DNA of 64,000 bases, from the NCBI GenBank assembly GCA_012839925.1, contig DUMJ01000043.1, positions 21,023-85,022 of the forward strand. Reading direction: 5' to 3'. Each line of letters starts with the position of its first letter. Position 1 is the first letter of the stretch. The notes beneath the pieces were generated by a model, which saw nothing but the letters and a program-made list of their open reading frames with translations, ran no database searches and was not told the DNA's origin. The DNA is from a bacterium (GTDB lineage Bacteria; DUMJ01). The position numbers were made by a program, and so were the translations under genes. Positions 6,832 to 58,952 of this stretch are shown piece after piece.

Positions 6832-6835
6832 TCTG

Positions 6836-7794
<959 letters not shown>

Positions 7795-7942
7795 TATCTT
7801 AGTCTCCAATATTTTCAGGAAAATTCTAGCAGGGTCTTGATGTCTTTATTAAGATAATACAGCAAAACTAAGCTCCATTCTACCTTTCCAAGTTCTATTT
7901 TTATGATATAATATCCAAAAATGTGGAAAGGGGTGACTGGTA

Positions 7943-9910: not shown

Positions 9911-9924
9911 TGCTGGGAAAATTA

Positions 9925-9958
9925 CAGCCCCCTGATCCCTCAGGGGGCTGTTTATTTG
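9925..9958. terminator. Intrinsic terminator (10-bp GC stem cagccccctg/cagggggctg, then tttatttg), probably bidirectional between the MCP gene and the convergent creatininase-like gene
   Basis: The hairpin and T-run are seen directly. The A/T-rich 5' flank gives a weaker U-tract on the opposite strand. Confidence 0.7.
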
Positions 9959-9969
9959 TCATTGAAGAC

Positions 9970-11088: not shown

Positions 11089-11094
11089 CCCCTC

Positions 11095-28825: not shown

Positions 28826-28852
28826 CTTTTATCCTCCTGTCATACAAAGGGT

Positions 28853-28879
28853 TAAGGGCGGAGTTCTTCTCCGCCCTTA
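28853..28879 (-). terminator. GC hairpin (taagggcggag...ctccgccctta) between the SBP gene and GH116
   Basis: Perfect 11-bp stem seen directly, 19 nt after the SBP stop. The U-tract is weak. Confidence 0.45.
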
Positions 28880-28897
28880 TAATTTCTATAGTGTCTT

Positions 28898-30877
28898 TTA
28901 TTTTATAAAGAACTGAACTGGTTCATACATATTCTCCCAATAGACATCATAACCACTGTATCCTACCTGGGGGACGTTATGCAGTTTATTACTTACCAGA
29001 CAGGGTTGAGGAATTAATCCTACAGTACCTATTATCCAGAGATTTCTTGCCTGAGACCTTAAGATTTCTCTCCCTGCTATAGTTCTCTCTCCTTCTTTGG
29101 TAGTAGTTTGCATCGTTTCAAACCACTTGAAGAGTCTCTTTATTTCTATTGGTGGCTCTTCTCCTGATTTCCCTCCTGTAGAATACCATGTGTACCAGAG
29201 AGGAGCAAATGTTGTTTGAGAACTGATAGGGACAAACCACTGGGGTTCTAGGGTAAATAATATATCTGTGCACCTATCTAGATGTCCTGAAGTGACTTCT
29301 AATTCATTAGCGTCTCTTCTTGTAGATAGAAGCTCTGATGTTGCTGGTTTAAGTGCAACCTTTATACCTATCTTCTCCCAATAATTTTTAACAAGTTCCC
29401 AGACTTCTCCCTCCGGGGCTTCACTAGATGGGTTAAATTCTGCCGTCAGAGTTAAGGGCTTACCATCTGGTCTTAGTCTGAATCCATCCTTATCCTTCTT
29501 CAGCCCCATACTATCTAAAAGTTTATTAGCCTGAGCGGGATCGTACTGTGCATAAGCAGTATCAAAACCCTTCTCAAAGTATCTACTCTCAGGTAAAACA
29601 GTAGCCTGTCTGGGAGTTCCCAAACCTAAAAATAGAAGTTGATTGATCTCTTCCCTATTTATAGCTAAAGAAAGTGCCCTTTTAAATCTTACATCATTTA
29701 TAATCTTTCTCATTACCGGATCTTTATGGGTATGATTCAACTTAATAGTTACAGCATTACCCCATGTCTGTCTCCAGAGTCTTACGCTGTAATTCCCCTT
29801 CTTTTCATTCTCTTTAAGAAGCGAATAGTCCTTTAGATTGGTACTGATTAGTCCAAAATCTACCTCCCCTCCGATAGCTTTCATATTCCAGAGTTCCCTA
29901 TTTGAAACTGCTGTTACCCGAATCCTATCGATATATGGAAGTTGTTTTCCTTCTGGATCTATCTTCCAGTAGTATGGATTACGTTCTAAACTAACATATT
30001 CTGTAGTAGCTTTTGTGACTATCCATGGTTCAATAGTAGGAACGCCAGCACTATTTAGAGAATGTCTTGTATTAGCTACTTCAGAAAATAGGTTGTACCA
30101 AGAATCAAATCCTTTCTCTTTTGCCAGTTCATTGGCTTTAGAATTATATTTGATATGAAATTGCTGGAGATAATGCTTGGGAAGATATGAACCCCAGGTG
30201 AGAGCCTCTCCTCTGTCTCTTGTAAGATTATATATAAACATAGGATAAGGAGCAGAGAAAGAAAACTCTACAGTATAATCATTTATCTTTTTAACCTTGA
30301 AAACCTCTCCACCAGGTTTTGTCCAGGCAGGGATGGACGGTGTAAGATCTTTGTTGAGAAGTACATCCTCATACCAGAAGACAAAATCATCTGCAGTAAA
30401 TGGATATCCATCAGACCATCGCATCCCTTCTCTTAAGAATAAGGTGCATTTTTTATAATCCCCTGAGTACTTATAACCTTTTGCTACGTTAGGGACAATA
30501 GTCTTAAGGTCGGGGAGTAGCTTGAATAATCTTTCAGCCTTCCAGTTGGCAAGAACCCAACCCATTGGATTTCCAGTATCTGCTAGATTCAAACTTCCTC
30601 CATACTGTCCAATCTCTTCTAGAGGTTCTATTACTCTTGGCTCTTTGGGAAGCCTCTCTCCAATGGGCGGAAGTTTTCCTGACTTTACAAGGTCTGTTAA
30701 CATAGGTGATTCGTTAAACTTGGTAATCTTTTTACCTGTAGTTTTTTCATAATCCTGTAGTGTAGTATAAGACTTAATCGTAGGCATCTTCTCTTGAGCA
30801 AAACTCAACGGTATTATCCCTCCAACTGAGATACATAAAGCTAATACTAAAATTAACACCCTTATACATCTATTCAT
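28898..30877 (-). CDS. ABC transporter family-5 solute-binding protein, orphan
   Basis: The ORF-track start (GTG 30886) is possible. The ATG at 30877 has an agaggtg RBS 8 nt upstream (MNRCIRVLILVLALCISV signal peptide). It is a paralog of the 13067 and 19386 SBPs. Confidence 0.85.
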   Translation of the reverse strand: MNRCIRVLILVLALCISVGGIIPLSFAQEKMPTIKSYTTLQDYEKTTGKKITKFNESPMLTDLVKSGKLPPIGERLPKEPRVIEPLEEIGQYGGSLNLADTGNPMGWVLANWKAERLFKLLPDLKTIVPNVAKGYKYSGDYKKCTLFLREGMRWSDGYPFTADDFVFWYEDVLLNKDLTPSIPAWTKPGGEVFKVKKINDYTVEFSFSAPYPMFIYNLTRDRGEALTWGSYLPKHYLQQFHIKYNSKANELAKEKGFDSWYNLFSEVANTRHSLNSAGVPTIEPWIVTKATTEYVSLERNPYYWKIDPEGKQLPYIDRIRVTAVSNRELWNMKAIGGEVDFGLISTNLKDYSLLKENEKKGNYSVRLWRQTWGNAVTIKLNHTHKDPVMRKIINDVRFKRALSLAINREEINQLLFLGLGTPRQATVLPESRYFEKGFDTAYAQYDPAQANKLLDSMGLKKDKDGFRLRPDGKPLTLTAEFNPSSEAPEGEVWELVKNYWEKIGIKVALKPATSELLSTRRDANELEVTSGHLDRCTDILFTLEPQWFVPISSQTTFAPLWYTWYSTGGKSGEEPPIEIKRLFKWFETMQTTTKEGERTIAGREILRSQARNLWIIGTVGLIPQPCLVSNKLHNVPQVGYSGYDVYWENMYEPVQFFIK

Positions 30878-31083
30878 ACTGTTCACCTCTATAAAATAAG
30901 AATTTTAAAAATTCTAAACTTTCGCCTAAACTCAAGTACCATCTAATACTACCTTTTCAGGTTAACTTGCCTGGGTTACTCTTTAATCTTTTGATAACTT
31001 CTATGTCTCTTCTCAAGCATCACTTCCTTTTTAAACTACAGTTTTACCATTTACCCTTCCATTACTCAGCTCTGGATCTGAGA

Positions 31084-34000
31084 TCATTCATAGCGTATAG
31101 CATTACCGAAAACAGGAATGTAAGATACCTTCCCATTATAGGCAAGCTTTACAATAGCCCAGGCAGAACTAGGAAGTGCTTGAGGGTCCTCCTCTGGAAG
31201 TTCCAGTTTAAAGCTGAGATCTATTGCTCCATTTCCTGGGAGTGAAAACCCCCTGCTTCTGGGCGATATACATCCGAGAGATATCTGACCTGTTAGTTCC
31301 TTTGACCAGAGTTCAATTGGAGAGACAACAAATACTTCTCCACAGATTTCATCACAATTTGGATTCCTCAGGGAAACCGTGATCTCTCCTGTCGCTTCAT
31401 CAAAATCAACCTGATAGTCCAGCAGATTTTCTCCTCCTACTTCCATAATATCTTCGATTACCTGACCATCGTGTACAAGCCTTGCTGTAATGATACCTTT
31501 ATCAGGCTGTGGACGATAACGAAGACTTCCGTCAGTGATGAAACTTATCACCACATCTTTCGTCAGGTGTTCTCCCGGTTCCAGGTTGTACTCAATAGTC
31601 TGGGGATAGGACCTCCAGCCTTCAGGAGTGATTATCTCCACCTCTCCGCTTACAGTTCGGTCTACATAATCGTTTACCACAGACACAGATATTGTATTTA
31701 TACTTACACCTCCCTGTCGGATATGGACACCTGTCTTTACCTCACCATGAAGAACAACCCCGACAGGGCAGTAACCTATAGGGTCAGCACCTAAATTATG
31801 CCTCCAGTATCTGAGATATACAGGCTGGGCAATCTCTTTCTCCCTGCCAAGCTTTATCCTATCATCAGGCAGGATGCTCCAGGTAGTAGGTATGAGGCAC
31901 CATGTTTCGATGGAGAAAGGACCAGTTTCCACGTCAAGGGAACACTTCCCGGAAAGGGAAACATCTCCCTCCTTTTCTTCTAGCAGGTTAGTGCGGTAGG
32001 CTGAGACCAGAGGTCTAAAGAACGATATTCTGCCAGAACTTTCAATTCCTGTGGCTTCGTAAGCTCTTATAATTATTCCTCTTAAACTCTCAGGAACTTC
32101 CTTGCTCAAAGCGGCTGTGCCAAAACCCAGAGGTTTCATAGCAGTCATAACAAGGTTATCTCCTTCGAACTTAACAAATGCCTCTTCTGGGGGAATCTTA
32201 CCCTGATGAAGTTCTAGTTGTCTTCCGATAAGCGGGTTATTATACTCGTATCCAGCCCGAAAAGCCCTGGCTGAACGCCAGTCGCCCTGATGGGGATAGA
32301 GGGCGTAAAGAAATTGATGGGTCTTCCATTCTGGCACGAACATATAGGGGAGACGGTCTTTGCCCCATGGAGTACTCCCCCATGCAGCCGTGTGCATCAA
32401 GAACAGGACCAGTGTATTATCATGCTCTACCGAACCCAGTACATTCCCGGTATTAAGAAGGATTAATCCATAATCATCAACTGTCGAAGAGATACCTGTG
32501 GCATTAGAATCAGCTGGGAGCTTGATGAGTCCCTGCGGAATGTTACAGAGGATGCTATCAATGGCTTTCTCCAGGCTTTCTATATCCTTTGCTCCTACAA
32601 GTAAGACCGGTAGTGGAGTCCAGCCTTCTGGGATGTCATGGTCTAGAGAAATTATACATGCAAAACCTTTAGTCTTCAGCTGCTCCCGATAATAAGCTTT
32701 TTTATCATCAGGTATAGTTTCAAATACCTTCTGGAAATAGCTGTTATCTCCGTCTAGGTCAAGAGCAACCCTGAATGAAGTTCCCCAGGGAAGGTCCTCA
32801 TTTAGATTCTCAGTGGGCATACATGAATCCTGAACGGGAAGGGAAGACCTGCGTTCTATATCTAGGTCATCAAAGAATGGTGTAACTGGAATCCCCCGGC
32901 GGATCAGTGACTCCTGAATCCTCTCTGAAAGAGTAAAAACCTTCGGGTTATGACCGGTAACGAGTCCTACCATACCGATAACAACCTGTGTATACCCTTC
33001 GTCGCCTTTATCTCCACATTCGATCATGCCGTTTTGCCCGAGACCAAACCACTGGTAGCATCGCCTTGCCCCGCATTCTGAATAGTTTCTCCACTGCCAG
33101 GTGCGGAAATCGAGATAACCCTTGCTCTTACGTTTCACTGTAGCTCCGAAACGCTCTTCAAATACCGGTTCAAGTCCGTTAAGATCTGCTGGAAATGTTA
33201 TCACGTAAAGGTCATGGGCTCCTGAATAACCCTCAAGTCTGGTCAAGAATTCTACCCTTGGTATTCCTCTATAGAGAATTATCTCCTGGTAACGCTGGCA
33301 GTCTTTCATATCACCTTTTATGATGAGCTTCGATATGAGGGGACCTGACTTGACATTTACACTGGCAGGGTAATCTCTTGAGAAGACCTTTTCACCTGTG
33401 GTGAAGATTTCCCAGGCAGGTTCATGACGTGCAGGATCTTCTGAGAGAGCTACAAGCTCGTTTCCAGGGATACCTGAGCCTTTAGAATTGGATGGAATAA
33501 GTTCCTTCCCGGCGAGTTTATCATAAAGACTTACTATACCACCTCCAAGTGTAGGATCGACTGTGATTCGGAAGAAATCATTCTCAATGGTATTTCCCTC
33601 AGAGGATGGTATCTCAGCAGGGGAACCCTCCATAGGTACCGCATAAAAGACTTTATACCCTAAAGATGGCACATCCTCGGCAAGGATGAGTATTTCAGCC
33701 TTTATGATTTTGCCATTTCCATTTCGATTCACCTGGAGTATCTCAAAGCATACCTCTTTCCCAGTGTGGTCTATTACCTTGAAATTATCCACTCCTTGCG
33801 GAAAACTGACTTCAATACGGCATACATCCGTGCGCTCCCAGTTAAGTGAGTTAAAGACTGCAAAGGGGACAGCATTCTCTGACCGAACGCCAGAGGTGTC
33901 TATATACTTTCCTATATAATCAAGGGAGTTATCCAGAACTTCTCGACCAATCTCCAGTGCCTCACGGTATCCGAGCATCAGGTCTATGTAAGAACGGTCA

Positions 34001-35016
34001 CATAAAGGACCTGTTATTGCATCGTGATGCTGGTTAAAAAGTAGTTGGCGCCAGGCTTTGTCCAGAGCTTTATCTGGATATTCAGCACCCAGATAATTTG
34101 CGATGGTGGCGAACTTCTCTGCATCCAGCAAGAGGTTTTCACCCTTTCGGTTGGCAAGCTTAAACTCTATCCGTGAAACACCTGTACCCTGGTGGTGCCA
34201 TTCGAAATCCCTGGCGGTTGTGGGAATCAAAAGTTTCCTTTCTTCTATCTCATGAAGAGTTTTTCTGAACCACTTTTCATGCCCTATCCCTGAGATGATA
34301 ATCCTTGGATTTCGGCTTTTAAGCTCGGCACATCTTCCCACAAGCCATGCAGATGGAGGTTTGAAATCTCCAGCATCGAGGCGTACATCAGATGTAAGCC
34401 CTAATGAGGCTATTTCATAAGAATGGTCCTCAAGATACTTGATAAATTCCTCTTCAAAACCACTTCCCCGTATCCCGTAATTCATTCTTTTGAAGAGAAG
34501 ACGAGTTCCGTCGAGGGATAGGTGCCAGAATACAGGTTCAGCTCCCCTTATATCCTTTGACCATATACAGCCAGTAAATCTTGATTTCCTCAGGATTTGT
34601 CCGAGTTGTGCTGAATGTCCAAACACATCCCAGGGCATATAAATCTCAGGTTTCGAATGAAGCACCCCTTCATGGAAAAGTCGACCATAGATGATATTCC
34701 GGATGAGACCTTCAGGTCCGATAAGAGTTTCGGCGGGCTGGCTATGAGAACCACCCGTTCCAACCCGACCGTCACGGATGAGTGATTTGAGAAATTCCCT
34801 GTTCCAGGGATATGTATCAAAATATGGCTTCAGGTATGTCAGTTCATGGAGAAAGACTCCATAATGTGGATCAGCCCTGCAGACCTGAATGTTCTGATCA
34901 GCGTCTCCAAGTAAAACTGTCGCATAGTCACGCTGGTCTTCAAGCCAAACTACGTCAGAGTGGAATCCCGGTACCACCCAGATCTCTTTAATAGAATCAG
35001 TAAAATTTTTACTCAT
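31084..35016 (-). CDS. GH38-family alpha-mannosidase-like protein, unusually large (1310 aa) with a long C-terminal extension
   Basis: The N-terminus IWVVPGFHSDVVWLED aligns with the GH38 metal-binding HxHxDxxW region. WDVFGHSAQLGQIL matches the GH38 DPFGHS motif. About 400 extra residues (~900-1310) have no recognised counterpart. The RBS is aggaggg. Confidence 0.65.
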   Translation of the reverse strand: MSKNFTDSIKEIWVVPGFHSDVVWLEDQRDYATVLLGDADQNIQVCRADPHYGVFLHELTYLKPYFDTYPWNREFLKSLIRDGRVGTGGSHSQPAETLIGPEGLIRNIIYGRLFHEGVLHSKPEIYMPWDVFGHSAQLGQILRKSRFTGCIWSKDIRGAEPVFWHLSLDGTRLLFKRMNYGIRGSGFEEEFIKYLEDHSYEIASLGLTSDVRLDAGDFKPPSAWLVGRCAELKSRNPRIIISGIGHEKWFRKTLHEIEERKLLIPTTARDFEWHHQGTGVSRIEFKLANRKGENLLLDAEKFATIANYLGAEYPDKALDKAWRQLLFNQHHDAITGPLCDRSYIDLMLGYREALEIGREVLDNSLDYIGKYIDTSGVRSENAVPFAVFNSLNWERTDVCRIEVSFPQGVDNFKVIDHTGKEVCFEILQVNRNGNGKIIKAEILILAEDVPSLGYKVFYAVPMEGSPAEIPSSEGNTIENDFFRITVDPTLGGGIVSLYDKLAGKELIPSNSKGSGIPGNELVALSEDPARHEPAWEIFTTGEKVFSRDYPASVNVKSGPLISKLIIKGDMKDCQRYQEIILYRGIPRVEFLTRLEGYSGAHDLYVITFPADLNGLEPVFEERFGATVKRKSKGYLDFRTWQWRNYSECGARRCYQWFGLGQNGMIECGDKGDEGYTQVVIGMVGLVTGHNPKVFTLSERIQESLIRRGIPVTPFFDDLDIERRSSLPVQDSCMPTENLNEDLPWGTSFRVALDLDGDNSYFQKVFETIPDDKKAYYREQLKTKGFACIISLDHDIPEGWTPLPVLLVGAKDIESLEKAIDSILCNIPQGLIKLPADSNATGISSTVDDYGLILLNTGNVLGSVEHDNTLVLFLMHTAAWGSTPWGKDRLPYMFVPEWKTHQFLYALYPHQGDWRSARAFRAGYEYNNPLIGRQLELHQGKIPPEEAFVKFEGDNLVMTAMKPLGFGTAALSKEVPESLRGIIIRAYEATGIESSGRISFFRPLVSAYRTNLLEEKEGDVSLSGKCSLDVETGPFSIETWCLIPTTWSILPDDRIKLGREKEIAQPVYLRYWRHNLGADPIGYCPVGVVLHGEVKTGVHIRQGGVSINTISVSVVNDYVDRTVSGEVEIITPEGWRSYPQTIEYNLEPGEHLTKDVVISFITDGSLRYRPQPDKGIITARLVHDGQVIEDIMEVGGENLLDYQVDFDEATGEITVSLRNPNCDEICGEVFVVSPIELWSKELTGQISLGCISPRSRGFSLPGNGAIDLSFKLELPEEDPQALPSSAWAIVKLAYNGKVSYIPVFGNAIRYE

Positions 35017-35195
35017 AATATCTGCCCTCCTGATAATAGATTCTACTCCTCTATTTTAATATGTCAACAGTTTTACATTATACACATTGTATTTTTACAT
35101 AAATTCAAACATAAATATATACTGATTCTTGTAAATTTTTATTGCTGTGTTAGAATATAGTCAAAATTAATCCGCTCTGATAGGAGGATAAGGAT

Positions 35196-36512
35196 ATGGA
35201 AGAATATATACCATATGAGTTGAAGGGCAAAGAACTTCTGGAGGTTATAAACCTTGGTTCAAAGTTTAGCAAAGAGGAGTCTATAGAGCTTAAATTTTAT
35301 GTAAAGACTACCGGAAATCTGGTCAAGGTAGCGCAGGATATAGCCAGAGACGAAACAACCGGACCCTGGGTAGGGCAGGGAGAACCTACCCAATTATTTA
35401 TCCGATCTCAGGCAGATGTTGATAGGATAGAGAGATACGGTGAAAAAGAAGGAGTTATTTATATAAGAACACCCCTTTTCAATATTTCCAGTGAGACAGA
35501 CCCTCTATACCAGTTTATTATGCTTGCGGTAGGGGGACCCGTGCTTGAATTTGTTTATTATCAGGAGGTCGCGCTTCTGGATTTTTCTTTTCCCAGAAAT
35601 TTCCTGGAAAGATTCCCCGGACCAAAGTTTGGTATAAATGGGGTGAGGAAACTGTTAAATCTTAAGGATGGAGAACCTATAATAGGCACAATTGTGAAAC
35701 CCTGTGCTGGTCTTACCCCCAGAGAAGTAGCGGAAAAATGTTATCAATCTGCTTTAGGAGGGGTGATGTTTATAAAGGATGATGAAAAGATGCTTGGTCC
35801 AGACTATTGTCCCTTGGAAGAAAAGGTAAAACTTGTCTCTCAGGCTTTAAAGAGGGCAGAGGAGGAAACCGGTAGAAAATGTCTCTATGCACCACATATT
35901 GTTGCTAGGGCTGACAAGATTAAAGATGTGGCAAAGAGGGCTATAGAATGGGGAGCCACTGCATTAATGTTTAATGCGGTCCTGGGTCATACCTATGAAG
36001 CTCTCAGTATTCTGGCTGAGGATAAGGAGATAGATGTTCCTCTTTATGCCCATTCTGGTGGAAGATCAGGGCTTTCTACCGGACCAAGAAGGATAGACGA
36101 TACTGTGATAGCAAAGCTACTGCGGTACAGTGGAGCAGATTTCTTCCAGCATGGGGTTTTTGGTATGAAAGAGATGCATGTTGCCTCTCTGGATGACGGA
36201 CTCCTCCATAACCTTGTCAGAGTTATGAGAGAAGATGTGGGCGTAAGAGACACGATACCTGTAGCTGCAGGTGGTCTGGGTGTAACCAATGCTGGAATTA
36301 ATCTTAAAGAGCATAAAGACGAAAGATTTGGTTATAGTGTGGCTCTTTTAGCTGGTTCAAATATTCTGAAGCATCCAGATGGTCCCAAAGCTGGAGCGAC
36401 AGCTATGCATCAGGCAGTTCAGGCTTACTATGAAAAGGGGATAACTGAAAAGGGGCAATTGAAAGAGTATGCCATTAAGAGAGGGTGGGAAGAATTACTG
36501 AAGATATTATAG
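35196..36512 (+). CDS. RuBisCO large-subunit-like protein (form IV-type RLP)
   Basis: 438 aa. GTIVKPCAGL aligns with RuBisCO GTIIKPKLGL, keeping K175 but with K177 replaced by Cys. GGVMFIKDDE keeps K201, D203 and E204. FFQHGVFGMKEM keeps the H327 and K334 equivalents. PVAAGGLGV has S379 replaced by Ala, and LLAGSNILKHP replaces the GGG motif with AGS. The RBS is aggagga. Confidence 0.8.
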   Translation: MEEYIPYELKGKELLEVINLGSKFSKEESIELKFYVKTTGNLVKVAQDIARDETTGPWVGQGEPTQLFIRSQADVDRIERYGEKEGVIYIRTPLFNISSETDPLYQFIMLAVGGPVLEFVYYQEVALLDFSFPRNFLERFPGPKFGINGVRKLLNLKDGEPIIGTIVKPCAGLTPREVAEKCYQSALGGVMFIKDDEKMLGPDYCPLEEKVKLVSQALKRAEEETGRKCLYAPHIVARADKIKDVAKRAIEWGATALMFNAVLGHTYEALSILAEDKEIDVPLYAHSGGRSGLSTGPRRIDDTVIAKLLRYSGADFFQHGVFGMKEMHVASLDDGLLHNLVRVMREDVGVRDTIPVAAGGLGVTNAGINLKEHKDERFGYSVALLAGSNILKHPDGPKAGATAMHQAVQAYYEKGITEKGQLKEYAIKRGWEELLKIL

Positions 36513-36518
36513 AAAGAC

Positions 36519-38003
36519 TTAACCTAATACCCTGGCTCCTATAAATATGATTACTCCCATAATTAAGAGATAAAAGAGGAAATATGGAAAGACTATCCTC
36601 ATAAGTTTCCCCTCTTCTCCTTTTTTGTTTATACCTGAAACAGCCAGGGTGAGATTCTGAATGGATATTAGTTTCCCTCCGGTAGCCCCTGTGGCATTGG
36701 CACTGGCCAGCCATACGGGAGAAACGCCTATACTTTTAGCTGCCTCTGTCTGGAGAGCCCCAAAGAGTGCATTGGATGTGGTATCACTTCCACCAAGAAA
36801 GGTCCCAATAGCTCCAAGAAATGGGGAAACAAATGGGTAGAAATATCCAAATACATCTATAAGTTTAATGGCAAGGAATTTTGTCATACCAGCATAATTC
36901 ATAATGTTCGATATAAGGACCATAGAGGTTATGACTAAGAATGTTGGCAGAATCTGCGAGAATGTCCCTATAAAAGCCTTTTTATAGTCCGAGGGTTTAG
37001 CCTTCAATATTATTCCACCTATGATAGCTGAGAGCAGTATGAGTGAGCCCGGTGTGTATAAGAATTCTATCTCTGTAGTCTTATTGAGCGGTCCCATTGA
37101 GAATGATATGGAAAATGGGTAGTTAGAGAATATATTGCTGAGATTGGCGCTAAATCTTGTTATAAGTATAAGAATGATAATTAATGCATAGGGGGACCAT
37201 GCTTTTAAATCTTCTCTGCGTATATCTGGTCTCTCTCCTTTTACCCGTAGATATATTAACAGGAATACTATGGTTAAGAATGGAGCCAGAATCGCAGGAA
37301 GCTCTGGTCCAATAAACCAGCCTACAAGAGTCTGAGTAAGGGCAAATACCAATCCTGTTCCCAGGATAAGGACAAAAGGAACGTTCTCCTTTATCTCTCT
37401 TTTTATAAGAAATGGTATTATTAATGTTACTGGAAAGAGCTGTAATCCTATGGTCCCGCTGAGTGCTTTTAATGGAAGATCTGTAGCTTTTGCCAGGGCG
37501 ATTACCGGAACACCTACGGCTGCATATACTACCGGGACAGTATTAGATATCAGAGATATCATGGCTGATTGATATGGAGGGAAACCTAATGATAGCAATA
37601 TCGCTGACGGAATTATAACCGACGTCCCAAAACCGGCTATCCCTTCAAGGAGAGAGCCAAAACAAAATGCTACTATAAAAGCCTGTATCAGTCTGTTGTT
37701 GGAAATACCTGATAGACTTCTCTTTATCCCCTCTATAGCCCCTGTTTCACATACCAGTCTATAGGTAAAAAGAGCGGTGAATATTGTCCAGATAATAGGG
37801 AATAGAGAAAATATAACTCCGTCTAAAATACTCCAGAGGAGGATATCAGCTGATATCCTCCAGACGGTTATAGAAGCTATACCGGTTATTAATAGAGATA
37901 TAATACATGCTATATGCGGTCTTACGATTCTGGAGATAAGGGCATAACCAAGCCATATCAGAGGTAGAAGAGTAGAGATTAATCTTATTATTTCGACAGT
38001 CAT
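36519..38003 (-). CDS. lctP: LctP-family lactate/glycolate permease
   Basis: 494 aa. It aligns near-colinearly with E. coli LldP: IVAFCFGSLLEGIAGFGTSVIIPSAILLSLGF against [32 protein letters not shown], and GGSDTTSNALFGALQ against TGSDTSSNALFAALQ. Confidence 0.85.
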   Translation of the reverse strand: MTVEIIRLISTLLPLIWLGYALISRIVRPHIACIISLLITGIASITVWRISADILLWSILDGVIFSLFPIIWTIFTALFTYRLVCETGAIEGIKRSLSGISNNRLIQAFIVAFCFGSLLEGIAGFGTSVIIPSAILLSLGFPPYQSAMISLISNTVPVVYAAVGVPVIALAKATDLPLKALSGTIGLQLFPVTLIIPFLIKREIKENVPFVLILGTGLVFALTQTLVGWFIGPELPAILAPFLTIVFLLIYLRVKGERPDIRREDLKAWSPYALIIILILITRFSANLSNIFSNYPFSISFSMGPLNKTTEIEFLYTPGSLILLSAIIGGIILKAKPSDYKKAFIGTFSQILPTFLVITSMVLISNIMNYAGMTKFLAIKLIDVFGYFYPFVSPFLGAIGTFLGGSDTTSNALFGALQTEAAKSIGVSPVWLASANATGATGGKLISIQNLTLAVSGINKKGEEGKLMRIVFPYFLFYLLIMGVIIFIGARVLG

Positions 38004-38413
38004 CTGTCTGATAAGATTTTGTATACCTCTCTTACAGTGTCCCTGTCTGAATCATAACCACAGAGTTCTGTGGCAAAGTCTATCTGTACCCACTTTGCCT
38101 CTTTTATCTCACCATACCTGGGGTTTATCTCTTCGGATTCGGCTCTTCCCAGATACCAGTAGACTGTTTTTTCTATAGTTCCTCTATTCTCATCTGTGTA
38201 ACTGTAGTTTGTCTCTCTTATATATTGCTCTATCTTTACTTTTATCCCGGTCTCTTCCTCTAATTCCCTTATAGCGGTTTCTTCCAGAGATTCACCTTCT
38301 TCTATCTTTCCCTTTGGAAATGTCCATTTACCAAATCGGTCCAAAATCATAAGTAGATAGACATCATTATTTTCTATCTTATAGACTATACATCCAGAAG
38401 ATATCTCTTTCAT
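38000..38413 (-). CDS. Nudix hydrolase
   Basis: 137 aa. The Nudix box GKIEEGESLEETAIRELEEETGI is present. There are 4-nt overlaps with both neighbouring genes. Confidence 0.85.
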   Translation of the reverse strand: MKEISSGCIVYKIENNDVYLLMILDRFGKWTFPKGKIEEGESLEETAIRELEEETGIKVKIEQYIRETNYSYTDENRGTIEKTVYWYLGRAESEEINPRYGEIKEAKWVQIDFATELCGYDSDRDTVREVYKILSDR

Positions 38414-39084
38414 ATCTCCTCCATCATCTCTAATACTTTTAATGGGTCACTTGCATTGTATATGGGTCTACCTATAACAACAAAGTCTACCCCTCTTTCT
38501 CTGGCCTCTCTATAAGATGCGGTTCTCTTCTGATCATCTCCGCCTGAAGATAGCCTTATCCCAGGAGTTACAACAATAAATTCTTTCCCCAGCTCTTCTT
38601 TAATAAGGGCAGCCTCTCTGGCACTTGCCACTACACCGGATAGACCCGCCTCTTTACAGAGTTTAGCTCTTTTCAGGACTATGTCTTCAACCTCTCCATA
38701 TATACTTAAATCTTTCAGATCTTCCTTGTCCAGACTGGTCAGTAGAGTTATACCCAGTAAATTTGTCTTTCCCCTAGCCGCTTCCTGTGCTTTAGTTAAG
38801 GCATCTCTACCTATACTGCTGTGTATTGTCAGGAAGGAAGGGTTATGTTCTGTGACTAATGTTACAGCATTGGATACGGTATTGGATATATCGTCCAGTT
38901 TTAAGTCTAACATCACTTTTTTCCCCATACTGTAAAGTCTATCAACTAATTCCCAGCCAAATTTATAGAAGGCTATATAACCTATCTTATAGTATGAGAT
39001 AGCATCTCCCAATCTGTCTATAAGTTCGAATATTCTGATACTATCTGTAATGTCTAAGGCTACTATTATCTCAGGATTCATCAC
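38410..39084 (-). CDS. pyrF: Orotidine-5'-phosphate decarboxylase
   Basis: 224 aa with the standard PyrF motifs: IVALD, the DLKLDDI Lys-Asp catalytic region, VVTPGIR and GRPIY. Confidence 0.85.
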   Translation of the reverse strand: MMNPEIIVALDITDSIRIFELIDRLGDAISYYKIGYIAFYKFGWELVDRLYSMGKKVMLDLKLDDISNTVSNAVTLVTEHNPSFLTIHSSIGRDALTKAQEAARGKTNLLGITLLTSLDKEDLKDLSIYGEVEDIVLKRAKLCKEAGLSGVVASAREAALIKEELGKEFIVVTPGIRLSSGGDDQKRTASYREARERGVDFVVIGRPIYNASDPLKVLEMMEEI

Positions 39085-39090
39085 TATCCC

Positions 39091-39417
39091 CTAGAATATC
39101 CATCCCAGTATCCAGGAAACTATACTTATAAAGAGTCCCCCCAATATGGCAGACCAGAAAGATACTATAGAAAATCCGGGGATAAGCCAGGCTACCATCT
39201 CCAGCAAGATAGCATTTATCACCAGCGTAAATAAACCCAATGTAATTATGTTTATGGGTAATGTTAGTATCTTAAGTACAGGTTTTATTATTATATTTAG
39301 AATGCCTAAGATTAAAGCAGCTATAAGAGCATCTACAAAGCTCCTTACTGATATCCCGGAGATGATATAGGGTGTGAGACATATTGCTATCGTAAGTATA
39401 AGCCAACGTTTTAACAT
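39091..39417 (-). CDS. Small 4-TM membrane protein, YvlD/DUF360 ('phage holin 4_2') family
   Basis: 108 aa, entirely hydrophobic with four TM segments. Its size and profile match the YvlD-like family. Confidence 0.5.
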   Translation of the reverse strand: MLKRWLILTIAICLTPYIISGISVRSFVDALIAALILGILNIIIKPVLKILTLPINIITLGLFTLVINAILLEMVAWLIPGFSIVSFWSAILGGLFISIVSWILGWIF

Positions 39418-39869
39418 ACCATTACTCCTTCCAGTTTTAATAGTAAGAGTTTCTTCTGGATTCCAAACCCATAGCCTCCCAGTCCATTTTTACCTATTAC
39501 TCTGTGGCAGGGTATTACTATCGGACATGGATTAATCCTCATTGCATTACCAACCACTCTTGCATATCTAGGTTTTCCAATCATCTCTCCTATCTCGGAA
39601 TAGGTATGAACCTTTCCATAAGGTATGCTCCTCACTATTTCCAGTATTCTCCTGTAGGTAGAATTTATATTACCGTAGTCTATGGGTATATCACCGAAAT
39701 TTATCCTTTCACCAATAAAATATCTCTTAAGCAGATCTCCCAGACCCAAAGGGTCATTTTCATCCCCTTCAGTTTTTATCCCATCCAGCCATTCTAGATC
39801 TGTTAAACCTTTATCATTCATTTTGTATTTAAATACACCGTATAGCGGTACACTCAACGAGTATGTCAT
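39411..39869 (-). CDS. ogt: Methylated-DNA--protein-cysteine S-methyltransferase (Ogt/MGMT)
   Basis: The C-terminal motif IPCHRVIGKNGLGGYGFG (PCHRV active-site Cys) is present. The start is taken as the internal ATG (MTYSLSV), just after the uvrC stop, rather than the ORF-track start at 39884. Confidence 0.85.
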   Translation of the reverse strand: MTYSLSVPLYGVFKYKMNDKGLTDLEWLDGIKTEGDENDPLGLGDLLKRYFIGERINFGDIPIDYGNINSTYRRILEIVRSIPYGKVHTYSEIGEMIGKPRYARVVGNAMRINPCPIVIPCHRVIGKNGLGGYGFGIQKKLLLLKLEGVMVC

Positions 39870-41611
39870 AGATTTTCCACCCATTTTTTTACCTCTTCTG
39901 CCACATTTTTAGGGATGCGACAACTCTTAGCTAGTTCTTCTACAGGTATATCCTTTATGGTTGATAGATCAGGATAAGACAACAGTATCTTTTTCGTCCT
40001 TTCTTTACCTACGCCAGGTATATCCAGGAGACTTGATTGCAACTCCTTTTCTCTTAGCTGGTGGTGATATTTTACAGCAAATCTATGAGCCTCATCCCTT
40101 ACCTTCTGCAGTAATCTTAAAGCCTCGGACCTTCTGGAAAGTCTAAGGCTGTTACCCTCAGGAAACCAGATTACCTCTTCCCTCTTTGCCAGTCCTATCA
40201 CCGGTATATCTAGCCCTTTTGATGCCAGAACTTCCCTTGCTGCTCCAACCTGTCCCAGTCCACCGTCTATCAGTATGAGATCAGGTAATTCTAAGTCACC
40301 ATTGTCTAACCTTCTCCAGAGGACCTCCTGCAGCATTGCATAGTCGTTAGGTCCTTCTACCGTTTTTATCCTGAACTTTCTGTAGCCATTTTTGTATGGT
40401 TTACCGTTTTTAAATACAACCATAGAACCAACTGCAGTCATTCCTCTTATATTGGAGATGTCATAGCCTTCTATTGTCTCTGGAAGTTTGGATAATCCGA
40501 GTACCTCTTTCAGGCTTATAAGAGGGTCTTCTATAGAAACTATCTTTTGATTAAATCTCTCCAAAACGTTTTTCTCTGCTATGTCTAAAAGCTTTTTAAG
40601 CTCTCCCTTTCTTGGATATTTTATGTCTACCCTCCTCTGAGACCTTGAGTTCAGCCACTCTTCCAGGAGTTTTTTATCCTTTATCTCCTGATTGACAACT
40701 ACAAGTGGCGGGATATAGTTTCCATTTCTATAAAATGCAGTAACGAATGCCCCCAGTACATCCTCTTCACCAGGATTTTCAATCTCAAAATCTTCCAGTC
40801 CTATAAGTACCCCTCTTCTTATGAATAGTACTACTGCACTGTAATTTGATTTAAGAGTGAAAATAGCAAATACATCTGCATCTATCTTTTTGGTACTTAC
40901 CACATATTGTTTTTCTGCTGTCTTTTTCAGGGCTATTATCTGATCTCTCAAGACTGCAGCCTTCTCAAAATCTAACTCTCCTGCCATATGGAACATCTCT
41001 TCTTTCAAGTCGTTAATTATCTCTTTGCTATCTCCATTTAACACTTTTACAGCTTCTTTTATATCTTGCATATATGATTTGTGGAATGTTAGGCTATCGT
41101 TTATACAGGGAGCAGAACACAGTCCCAGATGATAGTTCAGGCAGGCATTCTTAAATCTGGTAGGATCCCCTGTACAGCTTCTTATCTTAAATCTCTTACG
41201 TATCACATGTATAACCGCTCTGAGCGCCTGGGTACTTGTATAAGGACCGAAGTATTCCCCTTTATCCTCTATCCTCCGTGTCACAGTGAGGATTGGATAT
41301 TTGTCTTTAGTAATCAGGATATACGGGTAAGTTTTATCGTCTTTAAGTCTTACATTATAAGGAGGTCTATACTGTTTTATTAGATTATTTTCTAACACTA
41401 AGGCTTCAATCTCCGAAGATGTGACAATATAATCTACATCTTCTACCTGAGATACCATATCTCGTATCCTTGGATTGTCTGGATTTATATATGACCTGAT
41501 TCTATTCTGCAGGACCTTTGCTTTCCCAACATACAGCACATTATTGTTTTTATCTCTCATTATATATACGCCTGGATTCTCAGGAAATATATCATCTATT
41601 AGACTAGGCAT
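39866..41611 (-). CDS. uvrC: Excinuclease ABC subunit C
   Basis: 581 aa. The GIY-YIG N-terminus ([29 protein letters not shown]), a UvrBC-interaction region, an RNase H-like endonuclease domain and C-terminal HhH are present. Confidence 0.95.
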
Positions 41612-44438
41612 AAACCTCTTCCTCTATCTTCAGTACCCTTTTTAGAAACATTCCGGTATAAGATTTAGGGTTTTTAGATATCTCTTCAGGTGTTCCCTCT
41701 GCTATAATATAGCCACCTTTATCTCCACCTTCAGGTCCCAGGTCTATTATATAATCTGCTACCTTTATTACATCTAAGTTATGTTCTATCACTACCACCG
41801 TGTTTCCCATATCTACAAGTCTTTGCAGCACATTTATAAGCTTCTCTATATCGGCAAAGTGTAACCCTGTTGTTGGTTCATCAAGTATGTACAGGGTTTT
41901 ACCGGTACTTTTTCTGGAGAGTTCTGAGGCCAGTTTTACCCTTTGAGCCTCCCCACCAGATAGGGTGGGTGCTGGCTGACCCAGCTTTATATACCCAAGC
42001 CCTACATCCTGCAGTGTCTGAAGTTTCTGCCTTACCGCCGGGACATTTTCGAAATGTATCAATGCCTGGTCTACTGTCATATCAAGCACATCTGCGATAC
42101 TTGCCCCCTTATACTTTACCTCTAATGTTTCTCTGTTATACCTCTTACCATTACACACCTCACAGGGGACATATACATCCGGGAGAAAGTGCATCTCTAT
42201 CTTTATCATCCCATCCCCGTGGCATGCCTCACATCTTCCTCCCCTTACATTAAAGCTAAATCTCCCGGGTTTATAACCCCTGGTCTTTGCAGAATGCGTC
42301 TCTGCAAAGACTTTTCTTATATCATCAAATACTCCAGTGTAGGTAGCGGGATTTGATCTGGGTGTTCTACCTATGGGAGACTGATCTATATTTATCACTT
42401 TATCTACATTTTCAATTCCAATTATCCTGCCATATTTGCCCGGAGTCACCCTTGCCCTGTGGAGTTCTCTCTCCAATGCTTTGTAGAGTATATCATTTAC
42501 CAGCGTACTCTTTCCAGAACCAGAGACACCTGTTACCAGGACCAATACTCCTAAAGGAATATTTACGGTTATATCCTTCAGATTGTGTTCCTTAGCTCCA
42601 ACTATCGTGAGGTATTTACCATTTGGTTCCCTTCTACGGGCTGGTATAGGAATACTTCTCTTACCGGAAAGATACTGACCAGTTATTGATTCTTCACATC
42701 GCATAATCTCTTCCAATGTTCCAGATGCTACCAGATATCCACCATTTTCTCCAGCTCCTGGTCCTATGTCTACTATATAATCAGCTGATCTCATCATAGA
42801 TTCATCGTGTTCTACTACTATTACAGTATTCCCTAAATCTCTCAGTTTCTTTAATGTTTCTATAAGTTTAGACTCATCTCTTGCATGAAGCCCTATACTT
42901 GGTTCATCCAGGATATACAGAACGCCCATAAGACCTGAACCTATCTGGGTTGCAAGCCTTATCCTTTGAGCTTCCCCACCTGATAATGTGGCGGCTGGAC
43001 GCTCAAGAGATATGTAGTCTAATCCTACATCTATCAAGAATTGGAGTCTTGCCTTTATCTCTTTAAGTAGTTGATGGGCTATATAGGTTTCTCTCTCTGT
43101 AAGTTGAAGATTGTTTATAAAGTCTATAAGTTCCTCAGGAACCATACCGATAATCTCTGCTATAGATTTTCCCCCAATCTTTACCGCCAGACTCTCAGGC
43201 TTTAATCTCTTTCCGTTACAGCTGGGACAGGGTTGAGGTCTCATATACTGCTCAATCTCTTCTCTGGAATAATCTGATTCTGTCTCCACATATTTCGCTT
43301 CTAGCATGGGGATGATTCCTTTATAGTACATATTTACATATTTCTTCTGACCAGCAAAACCCCAAAAACTAAATCTGAGAAAGATATTTGGATCCCCATA
43401 GAGTAAAATTTTCAGCTGTTCATCTGTAAGTTCTCTCACCGGGGTAGTCAGATAAAAGCCCAGCTCTTCACCCAGTGCCTCAAGCATACTGGCATGATAG
43501 CTCCCAAGGGGGACCCAGGGGGCAATGGCTTCCATCAGGGGAAGATTTTTATCTGGAATTACCAGATCTGGATCCACCTCCATTTTAAATCCCAAGCCAG
43601 AACACTCTGGACAGGCACCATAAGGGCTATTAAAAGAAAAGATTCTTGGACTAAGCTCTTCCATACTTACCCCACAGTATGGACAGGCAAACTTCTCACT
43701 CAATAAAAGCTCTTCTCCCCCCTCTAGACTTACAATAGCTATACCTTCCCCCATCTTAAGAGTCGTCTCCAGAGATTCGGCAAGTCTGGACCTTACATCT
43801 GGCTTTACAATAATTCTGTCTACTATGACTTCTATATTGTGTTTCTTATTTTTATCAAGATTAATTTCGTCTTCAAGTTCTACCATCTTCCCATCTATTC
43901 TTACCCTCAAGAATCCTGCTCTTCTGATCTCCTCCAGTACACTTTTATACTCTCCCTTTCTTCCTCTTACCACTGGAGATAATAACTGTAATTTTGTCCC
44001 CTGATCCATTGACATTATCTGATCCACCATCTGATCCACCGTTTGCTGAGAGATAGGTCTACCACATTTCCAGCAGTGTGGATGTCCTATCCTGGCAAAG
44101 AGAACCCTGAGGTAATCATATATCTCCGTTACTGTCCCAACTATAGACCTTGGGTTATGTGATACGCTCTTCTGATCTATAGATATCGCAGGGGATAAAC
44201 CGTCAATAAGGTCTACATCAGGTTTATCCATCAATCCGAGGAATTGTCTTGCATATGCAGATAGAGACTCTACATAACGGCGTTGTCCTTCGGCATATAT
44301 GGTGTCAAAGGCAAGAGAAGACTTACCAGAGCCACTTACCCCTGTAAGTACTATAAGCTTATCCCTGGGTATCTCTAAATCTATATTCTTAAGATTGTGC
44401 TGTCTGGCTCCTTTTATAATAATCTTATTTAGAGGCAT
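41604..44438 (-). CDS. uvrA: Excinuclease ABC subunit A
   Basis: 944 aa with two ABC ATPase modules ([16 protein letters not shown] and [16 protein letters not shown]), zinc-finger Cys clusters and LSGGEAQR signature motifs. Confidence 0.95.
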
Positions 44439-46411
44439 TATCTATTTACCGGCTGTCCCAAGATCTCCCGTAGTCTTATAATTTCATCCCTTATATTGGC
44501 TGCTCTCTCAAACTCAAGATTCTCCGCTGCTCTTCTCATCTCTTTCTCTAAATCCTTCAATTTTTTAGCCATCTCTTTTTTAGAGAGTTCCTCCACGTCA
44601 TAACTCTCTTCCTCTTCCGCTACATCCAGCATATCTCTTACTTCTTTTTTTATCGAGGTAGGGGTAATATTATGCAATTTATTATATTCTAGCTGGACCA
44701 TCCTTCTCCTATTTGTCTCTTCTATGGCTCCTCTCATAGAAGAGGTAACAAAATCTGCGTACATTATAACCCTACCGTTTATATTCCTTGCTGCTCTTCC
44801 CATTACCTGTATCAGAGACCTCTCGGACCTTAAAAATCCCTCTTTATCTGCATCCAGTATGGCAACCAGCGTTACCTCCGGCAGGTCCAGCCCTTCTCTT
44901 AGCAGATTTATTCCCACCACTACATCATATTTCCCACTTCTCAGTCCTTTTATAATCTTTGTCCTCTCGATAGCGTCTATCTCAGAGTGAATATAGGTTA
45001 CCTTTATATTTAATTCTTTTAAGAACTGGCTCAGGTCTTCAGCCATTCTCTTTGTAAGGGTAGTTACCAGGACTCTTCCACCGGCATCTATCGTCTTTTT
45101 TATCTCTCCAATCAGATCATCTATCTGTCCTTCAGTTGGTCTTATCTGTATCTCGGGGTCTGTAACCCCTGTAGGTCTTATCAATTGTTCCACAACCTGG
45201 TTGGAGACCTCCAGCTCGTATGGACCGGGGGTTGCTGAGACAAATATCGTCTGATCCACAATATTTATAAATTCATCAAACTTGAGAGGTCTATTATCCA
45301 AAGCGGACGGAAGTCGGAACCCATACTCTACCAGAGTTTCTTTCCTGGACCTATCTCCCTCATACATACCTCTGAGTTGAGGAAGAGTTACATGGGACTC
45401 ATCTATAAAGAGAAGAAAATCTCTGGGGAAGTAATCTATAAGAGTATATGGTCTTTCTCCAGGTTTACGATCACTCAGATGTCTCGAATAGTTTTCTATC
45501 CCAGAACAGTAGCCTATTTCTAAGAGCATCTCTATATCATAAAGGGTTCTGGACTCAAGTCTCTGCGCTTCAAGTAATTTACCCTGAGCTCTGAGTTCTT
45601 TTAATCTTTCTTCTAATTCAGCCTTTATACTTTCTACTGCTTTGAGTAACTTGCTTCTTGTAGTTACAAAATGTTTGGCTGGATATATAACTATATAATT
45701 GAGGGTTCCTAGTATCTCTCCGGTAATCGGATCGAATTCTACTATTCTGTCAACTTCATCTCCGAAACAATCTATCCTGTATATTATCTCTTCAGAAGAT
45801 GGAAATATCTCTATAATATCTCCTCTGACTCTGAAGTTTCCCCTGCTGAGCTCAGTGTCGTTCCTCTCATACTGCAGGTCAACCAGTTTTTCCAGTAACT
45901 TATCTCTATCTATGGTGTCTCCCACCCTTATCTGTACGGTAATCTCCTGGTAGTCTTCAGGAGAACCTAAGCCGTAAATACAGGAGACACTGGCAACTAT
46001 TATAACATCTCTGCGTTCCATAAGGGCTTGAGTGGCAGCATGTCTCATCCTGTCTATCTCATCGTTTATGGAGGCATCCTTTTCTATATAAGTATCGGTG
46101 GTGGGTATATATGCTTCTGGTTGATAGTAATCGTAATAACTGATGAAATATTCTACCGCATTATATGGGAAGAAACTTTTAAACTCACTGTACAACTGAG
46201 CAGCCAGAGTTTTATTATGGGCAATAACAAGTGCAGGTCTTTTAACCTTCTCTATGATATTAGCCATAGTGAAGGTCTTTCCGCTTCCAGTTACTCCCAG
46301 AAGGGTCTGGAATCTATACCCCTTATTCAGTCCCTCTACCAGATTTTTAATAGCCTGCGGCTGATCACCGGTAGGTTTAAAATTAGAAACCAGTCTAAAT
46401 TCTCTATTCAT
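44438..46411 (-). CDS. uvrB: Excinuclease ABC subunit B
   Basis: 657 aa. Helicase motifs (GVTGSGKT and DESH) and the C-terminal UVR domain ([16 protein letters not shown]) are present. There is a 1-nt overlap with uvrA. Confidence 0.95.
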
Positions 46412-56194: not shown

Positions 56195-56200
56195 AGAAAC

Positions 56201-57658: not shown

Positions 57659-57815
57659 ATTAACCTCCTGTTATTATAATATTGGGACTACTTTTATAGA
57701 TGCCTTTTTCTATCAGGTTAAGAGCCTCTTCTAAGGACCCGAATTTCTCTTCTTTAATCCACTACAGTATAAATAACATATTCATAGCTACCAGTCAACA
57801 GCTTCTAATTTTTCC

Positions 57816-58913: not shown

Positions 58914-58952
58914 AAATTTCCTCCTAGCCCTTTATTGCTCCCGCAGTGATTT

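Follow-up and report, generated by a model that had tools for sequence, protein, structure and literature searches.

To our knowledge, only a handful of reactions have been assigned to the RuBisCO-like proteins (RLPs), namely those of an enolase, a 1,3-isomerase, a decarboxylase/transcarboxylase and an oxygenase, and the IV-AMC, IV-GOS and IV-Aful clades are functionally uncharacterised. The characterised enzymes all form a Mg2+-stabilised enediolate and differ in the steps that follow (PMC10176493). Among them, the IV-DeepYkr RLP of R. rubrum is a 5-methylthio-D-ribulose-1-phosphate 1,3-isomerase, the RLP of O. anthropi is a 3-keto-D-ribitol-1,5-bisphosphate oxygenase of the D-hamamelose pathway, and OiaX-type RLPs serve acid-sugar (D-apiose) catabolism rather than sulfur salvage (PMC10176493; for OiaX, Carter et al. 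2018 as cited there). Here we describe an RLP gene carried on a 64-kb stretch of contig DUMJ01000043.1 (assembly GCA_012839925.1), which is referred to below as the window. We put the probability at about 0.65 that its product is a functional enzyme of a distinct, compact and uncharacterised form IV subfamily, and that it is likely a Mg2+/carbamate-dependent enolising enzyme acting on a phosphorylated, keto-sugar-like substrate. A literature search for this clade found no dedicated paper. The closest mention in that search concerns a functionally unassigned RLP of 'Ca. Scalindua', described as related to those of Planctomyces and Magnetobacterium (PMC3655542).

The gene product is a full-length homologue of the RuBisCO large subunit (Pfam PF00016, 8e-35; 120.9 bits, cut-off 30.1). 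The same amino-acid sequence is deposited at NCBI as HHV81187.1, HOK29586.1 and HRR90756.1, all annotated as 'RuBisCO large subunit C-terminal-like domain-containing protein'; the contigs bearing the identical protein come from biogas-fermenter metagenomes, and a 97% identical variant carries the label 'Dictyoglomi/Dictyoglomota bacterium'. An AlphaFold2 model built with 40 family sequences as input was confident throughout (pLDDT 93.8, pTM 0.92). When searched with Foldseek, this model superposed over ~420 columns on form III RuBisCOs, MtnW enolases and the Chlorobium RLP, with template modelling (TM) scores of 0.81-0.84 at 23-28% identity, and the protein therefore has the N-terminal domain as well as the TIM barrel. 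Comparison with an 88% identical relative gave a nonsynonymous rate (dN) of 0.068 and a ratio to the synonymous rate (dN/dS) of 0.037, with synonymous sites saturated, and the dN was ~2.7-fold below that of the flanking LctP-family permease gene. Given this ratio and the low dN relative to LctP, the RLP gene is under strong purifying selection and clearly functional.

Catalytic positions were mapped using HMMER alignments to form III structures and a MAFFT alignment of 80 sequences, with a form I sequence as anchor. The RuBisCO residues K175, K201, D203, E204 and H294 are kept as K168, K194, D196, E197 and H286 and are invariant in 40/40 family members; G380 and G381 are also kept, as G359 and G360. 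A second set of positions has been replaced: N123 by P115, T65 by P57, T173 by I166, K177 by C170, R295 by S287, H298 by R290, H327 by Q318, S379 by A358, G403 by S388 and G404 by N389. Loop 6 is longer by 3 residues than in the form I reference and by 2 than in the form III enzyme 6hun, and it lacks a conserved K334-type lysine, with MAFFT placing the invariant H328 in the K334 column and HMMER placing E326 there. The invariant loop-6 residues of the family are Q318 and H328. As N123, K177, R295, H298, H327, the K334 lysine, S379 and G403/G404 are all lost, the protein is an RLP rather than a carboxylase.

The subfamily has the signature GTI-KPC-G, KDDEKM, YAHSGGR, TGPRR, FFQ-G and H-V-[AN]-S. 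The conserved N-domain loops DETTGxW and GGPxLE are kept as well; in RuBisCO, the N-domain loops complete the active site across a dimer. Besides the metal/carbamate triad, K175 and H294, ~75 further positions are invariant across phyla, and the conservation pattern of the family centres on the catalytic pocket. The segments A358-G359-G360 and G387-S388-N389 together form a remodelled P1 phosphate site.

An initial annotation of the locus, made from the DNA alone, had likewise called the protein an RLP rather than a CO2-fixing enzyme, and both the residue losses and the family-model scores given below agree with this. Its reading of K175 and K201-D203-E204 (in FIKDDE) as retained, and of K177 and S379 as replaced by Cys and Ala, is reproduced by our alignments, and the nine replaced positions answer its proviso that retention of all RuBisCO catalytic residues would have meant a form III enzyme. 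The claim that equivalents of H327 and K334 are kept has to be withdrawn, in that both HMMER and MAFFT put Q318 at H327 and the residues presumed to be these equivalents, H319 and K325, vary in the family (H/I at 319; K/R/L/F/A at 325). The GGG phosphate-binding motif is indeed lost, but it had been read as AGS with an offset of one residue: it aligns to G387-S388-N389, not to A386-G387-S388. The changes at N123, T65, R295 and H298 were absent from the earlier list.

We further evaluated the placement of the protein among known RuBisCO and RLP groups. All six NCBIfam RuBisCO/RLP models were matched, each far below its curated cut-off. The best-scoring was NF007095, a model of the 2,3-diketo-5-methylthiopentyl-1-phosphate (DK-MTP-1-P) enolase (183.6 bits, cut-off 409), and the second model of that enzyme, TIGR03332, gave 151.7 (513.6). 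The RuBisCO models TIGR03326 (form III), NF003252 and NF010002 gave 163.9 (497), 150.7 (438) and 120.5 (489), and the OiaX model NF042437 gave 140.2 (700). Against PDB chains the protein scored at most 139 bits (1ykw and 1tel only 126), compared with >500 bits for family members at least 51% identical to it. Just 3 of 1443 superfamily representatives, in a library clustered at 50% identity, reach that level of at least 51% identity, and the family is therefore compact.

A neighbour-joining tree was built over 393 columns with 100 bootstraps. Annotated plasmid records supplied references for MtnW, OiaX, six more RLPs (five of which adjoin DUF1537 'four-carbon acid sugar kinase' genes), the Photo-type RLP of Thiodictyon, a Vibrio RLP and a form I enzyme, and the PDB supplied three form III and two MtnW enzymes. 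In this tree the family of the window's RLP is monophyletic (100% bootstrap), and it joins two sister clades that share the KDDEKM motif in a superclade (100%). OiaX and seven further RLPs, five of them beside a four-carbon acid sugar kinase, are monophyletic at 100% to the exclusion of the window's RLP, and form III references group apart from all RLPs, in a split that was not bootstrapped. The Thiodictyon protein, the one full-length reference of its type, branches outside the family and differs from the window's RLP at N123 (E), K177 (N), R295 (F), H327 (V) and K334 (R). Identity between the window's RLP and every reference is 23-32%. The initial annotation had left the subgroup unassigned and had named tight clustering with MtnW-type enolases as an outcome that would overturn its call; the two instead form separate clades, each at 100% bootstrap, and the scores below every NCBIfam cut-off fit an unassigned subgroup.

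A scan of GTDB species representatives returned 80 RLP loci. Members of the family (49-88% identity) come from unclassified and Dictyoglomota-like metagenome-assembled genomes (MAGs), Poribacteria, Ratteibacteria, Omnitrophota, Aerophobetes and Planctomycetota (Brocadiia, Isosphaeraceae), so that the subfamily is widespread and so far found almost only in uncultured bacteria. We analysed 39 family loci, which represent 34 lineages and include the window's own strains and loci L001-L008, obtained separately from the scan. BLAST clustering of all open reading frames (ORFs) within 7 kb in the 34 lineages, together with Pfam annotation of 90 ORFs that flank the gene in 28 lineages, revealed no neighbour conserved beyond within-lineage synteny. 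The commonest flanking Pfam families occurred at most 5 times among the 90 ORFs (TilS and an FAD oxidoreductase, in Ratteibacteria and Omnitrophota), and no DUF1537 kinase was present in the window or among the neighbours of any of the 34 lineages. Since 34 lineages give no shared neighbour, the stand-alone state is a property of the family.

The sister clades (35-46% identical; loci L036-L087) come from Anaerolineae/Pelolinea, Armatimonadota, Planctomycetota, Verrucomicrobiota, Acidobacteriota and one Chitinophagaceae MAG. They share KDDEKM, Y204-C205, H234, N260, Y284 and N369 with the window's family, carry KPT or KPG in place of KPC, have R or D at H327 and Y at K334, and keep S379. Both they and the window's family are uncharacterised. 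The sister genes lie in PfkB/FGGY/LacD/RPE operons whereas the window's family is stand-alone. A PfkB-kinase cluster lies within 7 kb of the RLP gene in 26/50 sister-clade lineages, and the most frequent Pfam families among 128 flanking ORFs were PfkB, FGGY and AP_endonuc_2 (7 each), Mannitol_dh and DeoC/LacD (6 each) and RPE (5). By Pfam, one such operon (L051) encodes PfkB, an FGGY kinase, a DeoC/LacD aldolase and the RLP; a second (L041) encodes GFO/IDH/MocA, xylose-isomerase-like (AP_endonuc_2), hydrolase, ribulose-phosphate-3-epimerase-like (RPE), RLP, PfkB and LacI proteins; and a third (L036) encodes a cupin, a mannitol-dehydrogenase-family protein, the RLP, a DeoC/LacD aldolase and PfkB. 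The L051 operon (6440-11215, from a Pelolinea MAG) is tight, its RLP is 39% identical to that of the window, and its gene order is repeated in L049, L053, L055, L066 and L072. The operon has the look of an undescribed ketose pathway with two kinases, an aldolase and an RLP. The conjugative Vibrio nigripulchritudo plasmid pVNTG1 (L094, 28976-30121) carries a very divergent RLP, 23% identical to that of the window, which forms its own long branch in the tree; its gene has a transketolase C-terminal-domain gene on one side and an FGGY kinase gene on the other.

These data allow us to propose a course for the reaction. By analogy with characterised RLPs, a lysine carbamate would hold the Mg2+, and abstraction of a proton alpha to a carbonyl would give a metal-stabilised enediolate. 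Instead of adding CO2, the enediolate would be reprotonated, in a reaction of the isomerase, epimerase or enolase type. Such a reaction is expected because the first-step residues are kept and those for CO2 addition, hydration and cleavage are lost; the carboxylation and C-C cleavage residues that are gone are K177, the K334 lysine, H327 and N123. Given that the sister clades sit in kinase/aldolase sugar operons, the most likely substrate is a relative of ribulose 1,5-bisphosphate (RuBP), either a phosphorylated ketose or a phosphorylated keto-acid, and the two sugar kinases and tagatose-bisphosphate-type aldolase of those operons suggest a ketose (bis)phosphate as the substrate class. RuBisCO itself misprotonates the RuBP enediolate in a side reaction to give xylulose 1,5-bisphosphate (XuBP). 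C3 epimerisation of a ketose bisphosphate would be the productive counterpart of this misprotonation. The R. rubrum and O. anthropi RLPs are precedents for the kinds of reaction proposed here, the former for an isomerase and the latter for an RLP whose bisphosphate substrate is the product of two kinases. The window's locus has neither a cupin/methionine-salvage nor a hamamelose gene context. Indirectly, the PDB scores (at most 139 bits, compared with >500 bits for family members at least 51% identical) make close membership of the IV-DeepYkr clade unlikely. As the RLP is normally stand-alone in the subfamily, it probably catalyses a conserved single-step conversion and is not part of a dedicated catabolic operon.

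A more specific version of this proposal can be offered only tentatively. The KPC-type RLPs might catalyse a reaction new to the RuBisCO superfamily, for example the 3-epimerisation or 1,3-isomerisation, by stereo-inverting reprotonation, of a ketose bisphosphate or keto-phosphate, in which the Cys at K177 and His328 on the extended loop 6 might act as second acid/base. The reaction could then serve sugar-phosphate metabolism or repair as a stand-alone step conserved in Omnitrophota, Ratteibacteria, Poribacteria, Planctomycetota and Dictyoglomota-like bacteria, with the sister clades belonging to a new two-kinase/aldolase ketose pathway. As a matter of speculation, substrate specificity or the second acid/base might reside in the family-invariant C170, Q318, H328 and R298-R299.

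Several points weigh against an enolising enzyme for a phosphorylated keto-sugar. The substrate class is drawn by analogy with the sister clades, and the activity is a prediction for every member; the active-site positions, moreover, differ between the two groups (at K177, C against T/G; at H327, Q against R/D; at K334, H against Y; at S379, A against S). Within the subfamily itself, no kinase or aldolase gene is a conserved neighbour across the 34 lineages. Both phosphate sites are remodelled (R295 to S, G403 to S, G404 to N), and a non-phosphorylated or carboxylate substrate is therefore possible; such a substrate could be bound by the invariant R298-R299. The neighbour-joining tree, with its 393 columns, was also drawn without DeepYkr, AMC, GOS and Aful reference sequences.

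Of the described systems, the form III RuBisCOs of H. butylicus (6hun), P. horikoshii (2cwx/2d69) and T. kodakarensis (1geh) provide the best sequence and structure matches (139-167 bits, TM 0.83-0.84), and agree with the window's RLP in length, domain order and the Mg/carbamate site, including K175, K201, D203, E204 and H294. There is nevertheless virtually no chance that the protein is a bona fide form III-like enzyme carboxylating RuBP. At 26-28% identity, nine canonical catalytic or RuBP-binding residues are replaced, in a manner conserved across the family, so that carboxylase chemistry is not expected, and the TIGR03326 score and the position of the form III references in the tree point the same way. 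We consider it most improbable that the protein is instead an MtnW/YkrW-type DK-MTP-1-P enolase of methionine salvage, its partner genes lying elsewhere in the genome. The best-scoring NCBIfam model is that of this enzyme, some family members have been so named by JGI pipelines, and MtnW structures (PDB 2zvi, 2oek) are among the best sequence and fold matches, with the same two-domain fold (TM ~0.8). The two proteins keep K175, K201, D203, E204 and H294, have both lost K177, R295, H298, H327 and K334, and presumably have the first step, metal-stabilised enolisation, in common. However, the leading score is less than half of its cut-off, the 28-31% identity is no higher than that to form III or OiaX, and the clades are separate. 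MtnW enzymes also have S379, G403/G404 and mtn operons. Their catalytic lysine, which is Lys98 of the G. kaustophilus enzyme and is present in 3/3 MtnW references, occupies the N123 position, where the window's family has the invariant Pro115; the 64-kb window holds no mtn gene (mtnA, K, B, X or D). A loss of activity with retention of the fold, leaving a regulatory or binding protein, would suit a stand-alone gene with no pathway context, and has a precedent in the IV-Photo RLP of Chlorobium, which has no known activity and a stress/regulatory phenotype (PMC6389311). The invariance across phyla of the metal/carbamate triad, K175, H294 and ~75 more positions, both N-domain active-site loops included, and the low dN/dS make this explanation very improbable.

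The lead of the initial annotation was an Oia-type RLP (a 3-oxo-isoapionate-4-phosphate decarboxylase or transcarboxylase/hydrolase) or a related acid-sugar RLP, with LctP handling a glycolate or hydroxy-acid product. The adjacency of LctP is kept in all seven loci of the window's lineage, genes of the LarA, DHDPS, aldehyde dehydrogenase and TAL/FSA families flank the block in relatives, and the window also carries, ~20 kb from the RLP gene, a GH140 'apiosidase'-like gene and a split transketolase. OiaX and the DUF1537-kinase-linked RLPs also have the same Mg/carbamate site. Unlike the window's RLP, though, they keep R295, K334 and G403/G404, adjoin a four-carbon acid sugar kinase and form their own fully supported clade; the OiaX score of 140 bits is far below the cut-off of 700, no DUF1537 kinase lies in the window or beside the RLP gene in any of the 34 lineages, the window's lctP is the last gene of a uvrBAC-ogt-pyrF-NUDIX string, and the FGGY gene beside the GH140-like gene is a GlpK equivalogue (700 bits). 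Membership of the Oia family is excluded by score, tree, residues and the lack of DUF1537, and a different acid-sugar role is possible; we regard the explanation as a whole as improbable, and the glycolate/LctP lead is not supported. A doubtful but less remote proposal is that the RLP works with the adjacent long-form GH38 protein, and possibly with LctP, in the catabolism of mannosides or mannosyl-hydroxyacids, acting on a product downstream of the hydrolase. This would be a lineage-specific refinement of the enolising-enzyme reading, with its chemistry unchanged. A GH38 gene follows the RLP gene co-directionally in 5/6 relatives at 86-88% RLP identity, a different GH38 paralogue is the divergent neighbour in the window, so that two paralogues of an unusual 1200-1300 aa architecture flank the RLP gene while the outer flanks differ, and glycoside hydrolases and sugar ABC transporters surround the locus. 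On the other hand, the arrangement is limited to a single lineage, whose glycosidase-rich genomes could have inherited it as synteny, one relative has no GH38 gene beside the RLP gene, 28 other family lineages have neither a GH38 nor an LctP neighbour, and no kinase is present to phosphorylate the product.

Nearly every ORF of at least 100 aa in the window was annotated with Pfam and NCBIfam, and the features of the RLP gene and its immediate neighbours are collected in Table 1. No gene for MtnA (IF-2B), MtnK, MtnB (Aldolase_II), DUF1537 or PfkB was found in the 64 kb, which bears out, at the scale of the window, the absence of mtnA/K/B and a DUF1537-type kinase noted in the initial annotation; the gene order that it gave around the RLP gene was also correct. 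Same-species strains keep the order GH38(-)/RLP(+)/LctP(-). Among six species-level relatives, five have the RLP gene followed after 4-17 nt by a co-directional GH38 gene and then a convergent LctP gene, and the sixth (L010) has the RLP gene followed by LctP. The earlier description of the gene as monocistronic therefore applies to the window and not to these five relatives. In each of the lineage's seven loci LctP is next to the RLP gene or separated from it by GH38, and the pairing with GH38 and LctP is limited to these loci. A comparison of ortholog neighbourhoods, suggested at the outset, thus gives a gene that is stand-alone throughout the family; the earlier phrase 'sugar-utilisation locus' is apt locally, for these seven loci, and does not extend to the 28 other lineages.

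The window and its relatives are 86-88% identical in the RLP, 66-72% in LctP and 72-73% in a PHP-domain neighbour. The GH38 proteins of the window and of these relatives are paralogues, 38% identical over their full length (1300 aa) and of the same long architecture. The window's GH38 gene (31084-35016) and that of L005 (11337-14963) lie on opposite sides of the RLP gene and in opposite orientations, whereas the RLP and LctP genes are orthologous; differential loss or repeated recruitment would explain the two flanking paralogues. The window's lctP is the distal gene of an unusual eight-gene string (36519-46411, minus strand), uvrB-uvrA-uvrC-ogt-holin-pyrF-NUDIX-lctP, with overlapping or near-abutting ends, in which the holin-like gene encodes a Phage_holin_4_2-family membrane protein. 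Genes of the LarA family (nickel-pincer 2-hydroxyacid racemase/epimerase) recur near the RLP-GH38-LctP block (L009:7571-9810, L012:5701-7919, L006:17459-20722), adjoining a DHDPS-family gene or aldehyde dehydrogenase and TAL/FSA genes, and their recurrence gives a hydroxy-acid theme around the LctP permease.

Table 1. Features of the RLP gene and its immediate neighbours (positions in the window)
Feature	Position	Strand	Remarks
RLP gene	35196..36512	+	ORF call; ATG start; 438 aa + stop
Shine-Dalgarno-like AGGAGGAT	35183..35190	+	Good ribosome-binding site; 5-7 nt before the RLP ATG; read from sequence
Two overlapping sigma-70-like promoter candidates for RLP	35094..35156	+	TTTACA-18-TATACT; TTGTAA-16-TAGAAT with extended TG
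Promoter candidate facing GH38	35067..35040	-	TTGACA-16-TAGAAT; consensus scan
K168-P169-C170 (RuBisCO K175-P-K177)	35697..35705	+	Lys kept; Cys at K177 invariant in family (40/40)
K194-D195-D196-E197 (K201, carbamylated Lys; D203 and E204, Mg2+ ligands)	35775..35786	+	Within KDDEKM motif, common to sister clades
H286 (H294), S287 (R295 lost), R290 (H298 position), T295-G296-P-R298-R299	36051..36092	+	T295-G296-P-R298-R299 family-specific and invariant
Loop-6 region	36147..36179	+	Q318 at H327 position; longer loop; invariant H328
A358-G359-G360 and G387-S388-N389	36267..36362	+	S379 to A, G380/G381 kept; G403 to S, G404 to N
Long-form GH38 alpha-mannosidase-family gene, 1310 aa	31084..35016	-	Divergent from RLP across 179 bp; lineage-specific context
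LctP-family permease gene, 494 aa	36519..38003	-	Convergent with RLP; stop codons 6 nt apart

The promoter candidates come purely from a consensus scan, in which 11 sites were seen in the region against 4.2 expected. No notable operator-like repeats were seen in the 179 bp between the GH38 and RLP genes, no terminator was found 3' of the RLP gene, and an Rfam scan around the gene (30-40 kb) for riboswitches and other RNA elements returned no match at E<=0.1.

Several other features of the window were noted. The GH116 and SBP_bac_5 genes between the PHP-domain and GH38 genes (26276-30886) are missing from two strains with an identical RLP (L003, L004), and this segment is a strain-variable glycoside-utilisation island. 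Adjacent minus-strand genes at 9970-12249 encode IolN (3-dehydro-scyllo-inosose hydrolase, 309.9 bits against a cut-off of 245) and IolM (scyllo-inosose 3-dehydrogenase, 573.7 against 450); both meet the NCBIfam equivalogue cut-offs for a Thermotoga-type inositol pathway, and an SBP_bac_5 binding-protein gene adjoins them. A minus-strand cluster at 54707-60726 encodes the GlpK-equivalogue FGGY kinase, a DUF5060 + PF13204 'Apiosidase' (GH140-like) + DUF5605 protein, a 365-aa protein with no Pfam match and the split transketolase, whose N and C parts are separate overlapping genes. Strain L101 has an ABC transporter and a two-component system where the window has the transketolase part. An apiose pathway was considered for this cluster and is weakened both by the identity of its FGGY kinase and by its position ~18 kb off, with housekeeping genes between. 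Two proteins of ~350-365 aa with no Pfam or NCBIfam match (57816-58913 and 61683-62741, minus strand) have similar Trp-rich N-termini (…W..K..F..WW…), and their genes flank the split transketolase and an ECF S-component gene.

Together these data bear out the core of the initial annotation, in that the gene encodes a stand-alone RLP of unassigned subgroup with no methionine-salvage or DUF1537 context in the window. The result has no bearing on CO2 fixation itself, and as uncharacterised RLP clades are already an acknowledged situation, it is only moderately surprising. Each newly found RLP reaction has, however, revealed a pathway and informed ideas on how carboxylation evolved from enolisation chemistry. 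The family described here is strongly conserved and phylogenetically well separated, its active-site signature is clear, and its members are spread over several phyla, most of them uncultured. It is thus a practical entry to a new RLP function and possibly to a new ketose-bisphosphate route, for which the sister operons, with their two sugar kinases and aldolase, are directly testable.

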